NCBI GenBank assembly: GCA_043778625.1
Contig: JAYWFU010000147.1
Location: 31,516-95,515 of the forward strand
DNA length: 64,000 nucleotides
Direction: 5' to 3'
From: Bacteroidia bacterium
GTDB lineage: Bacteria > Bacteroidota > Bacteroidia > UBA4408
The notes under the pieces are model-generated. The model was not told the DNA's origin and did no database searches. It worked only from the letters and a program-made list of their open reading frames with translations. Position numbers and translations under genes: made by a program. This document shows, piece after piece, positions 41,818 through 41,890 of the stretch (position 1 is the first letter of the stretch; every line of letters begins with the position of its first letter).

Positions 41818-41890
41818 TTGCGAGTGGCGGATTTGAACCGCCGACCTGTAGGATATGAGCCTACCGAGATGACCACTTCTCTAACTCGCA
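41818..41890 (-). tRNA. element-encoded tRNA with CAT anticodon (elongator Met or Ile2-lysidine type)
   Basis: Minus-strand cloverleaf: acceptor TGCGAGT/ACTCGCA (7 bp perfect), D-arm GAGA-AGTGGTCA-TCTC, anticodon stem GTAGG/CCTAC loop CTCATAT, T-arm GGCGG-TTCAAAT-CCGCC, discriminator A. Confidence 0.8.

Follow-up and report, generated by a model that had tools for sequence, protein, structure and literature searches.

Identification of a tRNA(CAU) Gene on an Integrated Element

The window analysed in this study is a 64,000-nucleotide stretch of the Bacteroidia bacterium contig JAYWFU010000147.1 (assembly GCA_043778625.1, positions 31,516 to 95,515), and its subject is a 73-nt tRNA(CAU) gene of initiator-like type located on the minus strand at 41818–41890. 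The gene lies within an integrated mobile element of 18.5 kb (about 26323–44797) whose boundaries are marked by a 13-bp repeat of a host tRNA-Arg 3′ end; the tRNA is encoded by the element and not by the host chromosome proper, as a preliminary description of the locus had proposed. ARAGORN called a tRNA-Met(cat) at 41817–41890 on the minus strand, as that description had anticipated, and the Rfam covariance search returned a match to RF00005 at 41818–41890 on the same strand, covering model positions 1–71 of 71 with 65.4 bits (E = 5.9e-12) against a Rfam gathering score of 29; this was the sole Rfam match across the surrounding 3.6 kb, even at E = 1. The minimum free energy (MFE) fold of the 73-nt RNA is an exact cloverleaf of -26.7 kcal/mol (z = -3.66), and none of 200 shuffled sequences was as stable.

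The tRNA reads UGCGAGU UA GAGA AGUGGUCA UCUC G GUAGG CUCAUAU CCUAC AGGUC GGCGG UUCAAAU CCGCC ACUCGCA A, with a 7-bp acceptor stem (UGCGAGU/ACUCGCA), a T stem of GGCGG/CCGCC and an anticodon loop of CUCAUAU, and each detail given in the preliminary description, from the perfect minus-strand cloverleaf with its stems and loop to A29 and the T1-A72 pair, was found to be present. The tertiary nucleotides are all canonical (U8, A14, G18G19, G26, U33, U54-U55-C56 and A58). CCA is not encoded by the gene, and the host tRNA-Arg in the window is likewise without a full CCA. The tRNA locus and its flanks were also found, 100% identical, on four independent metagenome contigs. The locus is a genuine and complete tRNA(CAU) gene, with no defect in its stems or conserved nucleotides.

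Initiator-Type Features of the tRNA

A CAU anticodon fits an initiator tRNA, an elongator tRNA-Met or a lysidine-type tRNA-Ile2. The window tRNA was aligned to the E. coli references metY, metT and ileX, and the standard positions were tabulated, which gave identities of 68.9%, 51.4% and 58.9%, respectively. G2:C71, C3:G70, G4:C69, A72, A73, A11:U24, G26, G30:C40 and G31:C39 are held in common with metY; the T loop UUCAAAU is also that of metY, and the variable loop AGGUC is the one found in E. coli tRNAfMet with G46, whereas AGAUC stands in the metY copy compared. These initiator-type features are unmatched in metT and ileX, except for traits common to all three, such as A73; both of these references carry G1:C72 and C11:G24 and contain no run of G:C pairs.

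The D stem, GAGA/UCUC, contains A11:U24, that is, the purine 11:pyrimidine 24 pair of initiators. Position 11 was a pyrimidine in 47 of the 55 distinct non-CAU tRNAs from all loci gathered, and among the CAU tRNAs A11 was confined to the initiator-like group. The formylase determinants G2:C71 and C3:G70 (with G4:C69 and A73) and the MetRS identity elements (CAU and A73) are all present; G2:C71, C3:G70 and A11:U24 have been described as helping formylation (PMC7949028).

Three departures from canonical tRNAfMet were observed, namely the weak U1:A72 pair, A29:U41 and U38. The defining marks of a bacterial initiator are a mismatch at 1:72 and three G:C pairs, of which the middle one, G30:C40, is essential (PMC5389676). 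E. coli tRNAfMet (metY/metZWV) resembles the window tRNA in its CAU anticodon, acceptor G2-C3-G4, D stem of GAGx/xCUC form, G30:C40 and G31:C39; it has, however, C1xA72, G29:C41 and A38 where the window tRNA has U1:A72, A29:U41 and U38, the latter being also borne by a mobile element and without an encoded CCA. Natural initiators of the au/GC/GC type are found in alpha-proteobacteria and some mycoplasmas, with an A:U first anticodon-stem pair followed by G30:C40 and G31:C39, as here; so far as that source states, they are chromosomal, the sole initiators, and mismatched at 1:72, whereas the window tRNA is accessory and paired at this position (PMC5389676). The combination of an initiator body with a weak or paired 1:72 is known from engineered E. 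coli tRNAfMet (A1-U72, PMC5393177, and mutants of the U1:A72 type cited there and in PMC5389676). The formylase is reported to tolerate weak pairing at 1:72, and A1-U72 tRNAfMet keeps E. coli growing (PMC5393177); such 1:72 variants are still formylated and can sustain growth, and the titles of the papers describing them indicate that some both initiate and elongate. These variants are laboratory mutants, whereas the combination in the window is natural and recurs in many phages.

Since two of the features that define tRNAfMet are not strictly present, the tRNA is best described as initiator-like and is not filed here as a canonical tRNAfMet. The preliminary description had favoured an elongator tRNA-Met or Ile2 over an initiator, but A11:U24, G2-C3-G4, G30:C40, G31:C39 and the identity to metY point the other way. 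A29 and the paired T1-A72, on which it had relied, are both real, yet they are the sole two non-initiator traits in a molecule that is otherwise of initiator type.

Related tRNAs in Phages and Viral Contigs

A sensitive BLAST search of the tRNA against 50,697 phage records matched 63 records, the best matches being the "tRNA-Met" genes of the Aeromonas T4-like phages avDM6, 65/65.2 and Aeh1, with full-length identities of 82–86%. All of them have exactly the acceptor stem UGCGAGU/ACUCGCA of the window tRNA; avDM6 and 65/65.2 agree with it in the D arm GAGAAGUGGUCAUCUC too, and Aeh1 has the same D stem and a different D loop. They also share A29:U41 and G30:C40 with the window tRNA and likewise show variant 3′ sides of the anticodon loop (U37 in avDM6 and 65). 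The Aeromonas genes, however, belong to the large tRNA clusters of 220–240-kb lytic myoviruses of Gammaproteobacteria, whereas a single tRNA is carried here by an 18.5-kb temperate element of Bacteroidota. Aeh1 has three CAU tRNAs, one Ile2-like, one elongator-like and one of the window type (PMC1524935, Table 4), and such a set would be expected were the window type to act as the initiator. In avDM6 and 65.2, one further CAU tRNA besides the window type was found in the 3-kb tRNA-cluster stretches considered, that of 65.2 being 85% identical to ileX. The lysidine-type tRNA-Ile(CAU) of T4 and its relatives (PMC1524935) resembles the window tRNA in being phage-encoded, in its CAU anticodon and in its automatic annotation as tRNA-Met, but it differs in the acceptor, the D stem (C11:G24) and the anticodon stem, and it is a separate gene in Aeh1 and apparently in 65.2.

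A scan of IMG/VR with the shared 16-mer added some 18 tRNAs of this kind, carried by unrelated viral contigs. The exact anticodon arm was found on just one other contig, the same in IMG/VR and the JGI metagenomes: L027, a 56-kb IMG/VR viral contig, whose tRNA matches all 23 nt of this arm, U38 among them, and has a canonical C1xA72 mismatch. For the covariation analysis, 16 related CAU tRNAs, selected by their similarity to the query, were used. G2:C71, C3:G70, G4:C69, A11:U24 and G30:C40 were invariant in these 16 relatives, and position 1:72 was U:A in nine and a mismatch in seven. In the family cloverleaf, 97.9% of the cells are paired, with double-sided changes in 12 pairs; the covariation of 0.587, a value reached by 0 of 500 shuffles, compares with 0.148 in shuffles and at most 0.133 when slid, and the compensatory changes expected of tRNA stems were found across four stems.

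Recurrent deviations from CUCAUAA, the bacterial anticodon loop, were observed in the phage initiator-like tRNAs, at position 32, 37 or 38. U38 was observed in the window tRNA, in L027, in L045 and in the Clavibacter phage CN1A, and U37 in avDM6 and 65, while the loop is AUCAUAG in the Bacteroides phage BI-TP1 (L083, 41–114) and UUCAUGC in the faecal 'Bacteriophage sp.' MT837596 (L084, 41–112). The tRNAs of the last two phages are unannotated, and both are of initiator type, with a 1:72 mismatch and three G:C pairs despite their non-canonical loops. Overall, a metY-like tRNA was present in 350 of the 50,697 phage records, labelled only as tRNA-Met or unannotated. Initiator-like phage tRNAs are an existing, unlabelled kind, and the window gene is another one in an unusual carrier.

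Two further groups were noted among the viral contigs. CAU tRNAs with a long variable arm occur in IMG/VR at L035 (5632–5719), L036 (1142–1229), L070 (5570–5657), L044 (187–277) and L051 (210–295); they have the acceptor 5′ strand UGCGAGU, a GAGA D stem and an extra arm of about 14 nt, with total lengths of 86–91 nt, which is odd for a Met-type tRNA. A subgroup of the same tRNA family, comprising the IMG/VR genes of L038, L040, L043, L048, L054, L061 and L065, has the discriminator U73 and a single G:C pair in the anticodon stem (UGAGU/ACUCA), each of these being the sole tRNA on a small viral contig.

Immediate Neighbours of the tRNA Gene

The tRNA occupies a 102-nt gap in a compact same-strand run of ORF76, ORF101, the tRNA, ORF102, Rep and SSB. 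The run begins with a 76-aa gene at 42208–42438 (-), known from the open reading frame (ORF) list and the metagenome gene calls. Upstream of the tRNA is a 101-aa gene of unassigned function at 41898–42203 (-), which is supported by the ORF list and by the gene calls on the four metagenome contigs, has no Pfam or PHROG match and ends 7 nt short of the tRNA. Directly downstream is a 102-aa gene, also of unassigned function, at 41487–41795 (-), for which the sequence and the metagenome gene calls agree on an ATG at 41795.

The tRNA had been described as hidden under two overlapping ORFs. Both exist as mechanical ORFs, but neither is a likely gene and the tRNA is not hidden: ORF 41487–41876 (-) is merely the longest GTG extension of the 102-aa gene, and ORF 41818–42075 (+) is antisense to the 101-aa gene, which shares the strand of its neighbours. 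Nor did gene callers go astray at this place as had been feared, those applied to the four metagenome contigs having left the tRNA gap free.

Scans for sigma-70-type promoters and for terminators gave results at chance level, and the Bacteroidota -33/-7 promoter pattern had one match, located elsewhere, which is fewer than expected. From the gene arrangement, we infer that the tRNA is co-transcribed with the replication genes. A 16-nt motif, TTATTAAACAACT(T/A)AC, occurs on the minus strand at 43734–43749 and 42207–42222, where it lies immediately 5′ of the ATGs of an excisionase-like gene and of ORF101, and may be a shared regulatory or translation-initiation signal.

Boundaries and Gene Content of the Carrier Element

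The host tRNA-Arg(UCU) gene was located at 26261–26336 (+) by ARAGORN and Rfam. Its 3′ end forms the core of the left attachment site (attL), CAATCCGGATCAC, at 26323–26335 (+), and the core of the right attachment site (attR), at 44785–44797 (+), is an exact 13-bp repeat of it; this 13-nt end recurs exactly once. No long repeat of the tRNA-Arg 3′ end was found, and the 13-bp core surfaced only in the k-mer scan. An 11-nt arm-type repeat, TTGTAGAACCA, is present at 26446, 26457, 44713 and 44735, two copies at each end. A tyrosine integrase of the Bacteroidota type, recognised in domain searches by its Arm-DNA-bind_5, SAM_5 and catalytic domains, is encoded at 26411–27592 (+). The integrase beside the tRNA-Arg gene and the direct repeat at the far boundary identify an integrative element that targets a tRNA gene.

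The replication module consists of a 503-aa Rep_1 rolling-circle initiator with the motif HIHLH at 39962–41473 (-) and a single-stranded DNA-binding protein (SSB) at 39249–39686 (-), the latter assigned through a PF00436 match on an identical gene and adjoining Rep in related loci too. The Rep_1 protein matched PF01446 with 41.1 bits, above the Pfam cut-off of 33.2 bits, which marks the element as a Rep_1 replicon; a pC194-type nick motif is absent from the window. A non-coding region at 43150–43300 (-), between the excisionase-like gene and the next ORF, has a DNA fold with z = -5.1 and no Rfam match, the fold being a long AT-rich stem around a GC hairpin (GGCGGGGCGGG...CCCGCCCC), and may serve the element as a replication origin or a terminator.

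Regulation appears to involve a cI/LexA-like repressor (HTH_3 and Peptidase_S24 by domain search) at 43869–44519 (+) and, divergent from it, an excisionase-like or HTH_17 regulator (domain and PHROG matches) at 43415–43729 (-). A gene for a multi-pass membrane protein of 141 aa, at 42500–42925 (+), separates the regulatory from the replication module; it is opposed to the nearby element genes and is possibly a moron expressed in lysogeny or an exclusion gene.

The other assigned genes include a collagen-repeat fibre-like protein at 29308–30558 (-), which matched many tail-fibre PHROGs, and an endolysin (glucosaminidase) at 31048–31542 (-), found in profile searches. A 241-aa conserved protein of the structural module at 34047–34772 (-), with 351 relatives, is a candidate capsid protein; it was modelled by AlphaFold2 (AF2) as a beta-sandwich with a predicted local distance difference test (pLDDT) score of 93, and Foldseek returned a weak likeness to jelly-roll capsids, with best E values of 6.6e-3 (PDB) and 4.3e-4 (BFVD) and a template modelling (TM) score of about 0.2. 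A 188-aa P-loop ATPase at 36027–36593 (-), conserved in related loci, gave weak Pox_A32 and terminase PHROG matches and is a candidate genome-packaging ATPase. No ORF of terminase or portal size was found within the element. Compared with the non-tailed phages that have jelly-roll capsids (PM2, FLiP and P23-77-like), the element offers only weak matches to the capsid fold and to an A32-type ATPase, and a non-tailed virus is a reasonable but tentative reading.

Host and Distribution of the Element Family

The host flanks encode T9SS sorting domains (type IX secretion system) and CarboxypepD_reg receptors, and the genes are without Shine-Dalgarno sequences, from which it follows that the host belongs to the Bacteroidota. 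In the host flank at 50738–51937 (-), about 6 kb from the end of the prophage, a protein with a GmrSD_N domain is encoded; this domain is typical of type IV restriction enzymes acting on modified DNA.

Rep has 75 relatives, named 'protein rep' in Saprospiraceae genomes, and relatives with 26–47% identity occur in Saprospiraceae, Chitinophagaceae and Cytophagales genomes as well as on 16–20-kb metagenome contigs. A megablast search of the 50,697 phage records with the 6 kb surrounding the tRNA gave no match, so that the element is not a described phage. The viral contigs that bear related tRNAs have no proteins in common with the element, and the tRNA appears to have been acquired by this lineage in particular, from the gene pool of phages.

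Discussion

Judging from its sequence features, the gene at 41818–41890 probably encodes a functional initiator-type tRNA(CAU), carried by an 18.5-kb temperate and probably non-tailed virus-like element integrated at the 3′ end of the host tRNA-Arg(UCU) gene. After induction, the tRNA would be transcribed together with the replication and early genes, released by host RNase P and 3′ processing enzymes, and completed by the host CCA-adding enzyme. Host MetRS would charge it with methionine through the CAU anticodon and A73, and the host formyltransferase would then formylate the Met-tRNA on account of its weak, openable U1:A72 pair and of G2:C71, C3:G70 and A11:U24; by virtue of G30:C40 and G31:C39, it would be used in the ribosomal P site for the start of translation. 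The element would thereby keep up or raise the supply of initiator tRNA while it expresses many short genes. The mean gene length is 184 aa in the element versus 459 aa in the host flanks, which would call, though the argument is a weak one, for more initiations per kilobase in the element. The tRNA would thus probably supply an extra copy of the initiator during lytic growth, and its paired 1:72 makes some elongator use through EF-Tu possible as well.

An anti-defence role for an initiator tRNA is also possible. VapC toxins of enteric bacteria and Leptospira are described as cleaving tRNAfMet between A38 and C39 (PMC4105405), and it has been hypothesised that phage tRNAs evade nucleases through changes in the anticodon loop (PMC10264068). 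U38 of the window tRNA stands exactly at the bond cut by VapC, and this position, together with the recurrent changes at 32, 37 and 38 in phage initiator-like tRNAs, suggests that the extra copy would be insensitive to a host nuclease aimed at the initiator anticodon loop.

Several points weigh against an initiator function for the tRNA. Position 1:72 is a Watson–Crick pair, U1:A72, where a canonical initiator has none, and the run of three G:C pairs at 29:41, 30:40 and 31:39 is reduced to two (au/GC/GC); the paired 1:72 should permit EF-Tu binding and attack by peptidyl-tRNA hydrolase. The rules applied come mainly from E. coli, and the enzymes of Bacteroidota may read other determinants. The five known copies of the tRNA are 100% identical and hence uninformative on constraint. 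No tRNA(CAU) was detected in any of the 25 distinct Rep-family loci related to the element, the four closest relatives (Rep 43–47% identical) among them, so that its retention by selection in the element lineage is not demonstrated. These loci comprised 21 from genomes and one from IMG/VR, all from the Rep search, plus the four closer metagenome contigs, with duplicates merged; L006 and L008 are contigs that also appeared as two hits of the search with the Rep protein. The suggested evasion of nucleases is conjectural, a host toxin that cleaves tRNAfMet having been neither sought nor found.

Among the alternatives, an elongator tRNA-Met, or a tRNA with both roles that serves chiefly in elongation, delivered by EF-Tu to the A site for internal AUG codons, is unlikely but deserves the most weight. 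It would account for the Watson–Crick U1:A72 and for an anticodon stem with two G:C pairs only, EF-Tu being known to need strong 1:72 pairing (PMC5393177), and the 3-kb stretches of avDM6 and 65.2, with their one other CAU tRNA each and that of 65.2 resembling ileX, would leave room for it. The paired 1:72 is, however, the only elongator trait, and a weak fit at that; the tRNA has A:U at 11:24 and G:C at 30:40 and 31:39, A11:U24 and the G2-C3-G4 acceptor are marks of initiators that are absent in metT, with which the identity is 51%, and in Aeh1 an elongator-like CAU tRNA is already present as a gene of its own. The share of AUG does not differ between the element (1.86%) and the host flanks (1.93%), which implies no extra demand for an elongator. 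The proposal in the preliminary description that the tRNA compensates for codon usage finds little support in these values, or in the AUA codons, which are somewhat enriched in the element while the tRNA is not Ile2-like.

That the gene is a passenger, taken over from another phage or a former host through recombination or through imprecise excision and now neutral or decaying without a role, is a still less probable explanation. It would agree with the absence of the gene from 25 of 25 related loci and with the identity of all copies, in which no purifying selection is visible, and relatives of the element (L007, L011 and L026) do integrate beside tRNA genes, the tRNAs in these loci being integration sites beside integrases. 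Yet the gene is complete, with stems and conserved nucleotides intact, and it is packed neatly between genes on the transcribed strand; the attachment site of the element is tRNA-Arg, a different gene, and the nearest relatives of the tRNA are phage tRNAs and not the canonical bacterial initiator.

A tRNA-Ile2 with lysidine placed at C34 by TilS, reading the abundant AUA codons of the element, is very improbable. E. coli Ile2 determinants are those of ileX, that is, C4:G69, C5:G68 and C29:G41 in a C11:G24 body. AUA makes up 51% of the Ile codons in the element versus 38% in the host flanks, and lysidine-type tRNA-Ile(CAU) is common in T4-like phages (PMC1524935). AUA is common in the host too, however, which must therefore already decode it well. 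In ileX and in the Ile2-like genes of phages, the acceptor is of GGCCCC type (C4:G69, C5:G68) and the D stem is GCUC/GAGC with C11:G24, and the window tRNA has instead G4:C69, A5:U68, A11:U24, G12:C23 and U38; A29:U41 also departs from the E. coli rules, from which TilS of Bacteroidota may differ. A separate Ile2-like gene stands beside the window type in Aeh1 and an ileX-like one in 65.2. A look for the determinants of C34 lysidine, as had been recommended, found the acceptor and anticodon-stem features of the ileX type to be absent.

Finally, a tRNA-like DNA or RNA structure serving rolling-circle replication, as a single-strand origin or primer site beside rep, is hardly credible: the position about 350 nt upstream of the Rep_1 gene and the need of rolling-circle replicons for structured single-strand origins would suit it, but the full-length 65-bit covariance match with all tertiary nucleotides and a proper anticodon loop, the homologous tRNAs in the tRNA clusters of unrelated tailed phages, the better origin candidate at 43150–43300 and the lack of a pC194-type nick motif in the window all speak against it.

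Codon supply is the usual explanation for virus-encoded tRNAs, with the evasion of anticodon nucleases proposed more recently. Phages are described as avoiding initiator tRNAs in general (PMC10264068), but here an initiator-like tRNA is the sole tRNA of a very small temperate element, and what is unusual about it is its small, apparently non-tailed carrier and its own hybrid features. The finding links the window tRNA to look-alike genes in unrelated phages that the databases label just "tRNA-Met", and it implies that CAU tRNAs in phage annotation need isotype-specific models. As a tentative idea, and one more doubtful than probable, these genes may form an unrecognised, cross-phylum class of virus-borne hybrid Met tRNAs, with an initiator body (A11:U24, G2-C3-G4, G30:C40), an openable U1:A72 and a change at position 32, 37 or 38, that would be formylated, start translation, evade host toxins of VapC type directed at the initiator anticodon loop (A38/C39) and perhaps elongate as well. 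If such a class is real, even an 18-kb non-tailed virus would keep initiation running when the host initiator is shut down. Should these tRNAs prove to be formylated and resistant to nucleases, they would supply naturally occurring cases of 1:72 and anticodon-stem variants that have until now been studied solely in the form of E. coli mutants, and translation initiation would be a battleground between phages and their hosts.

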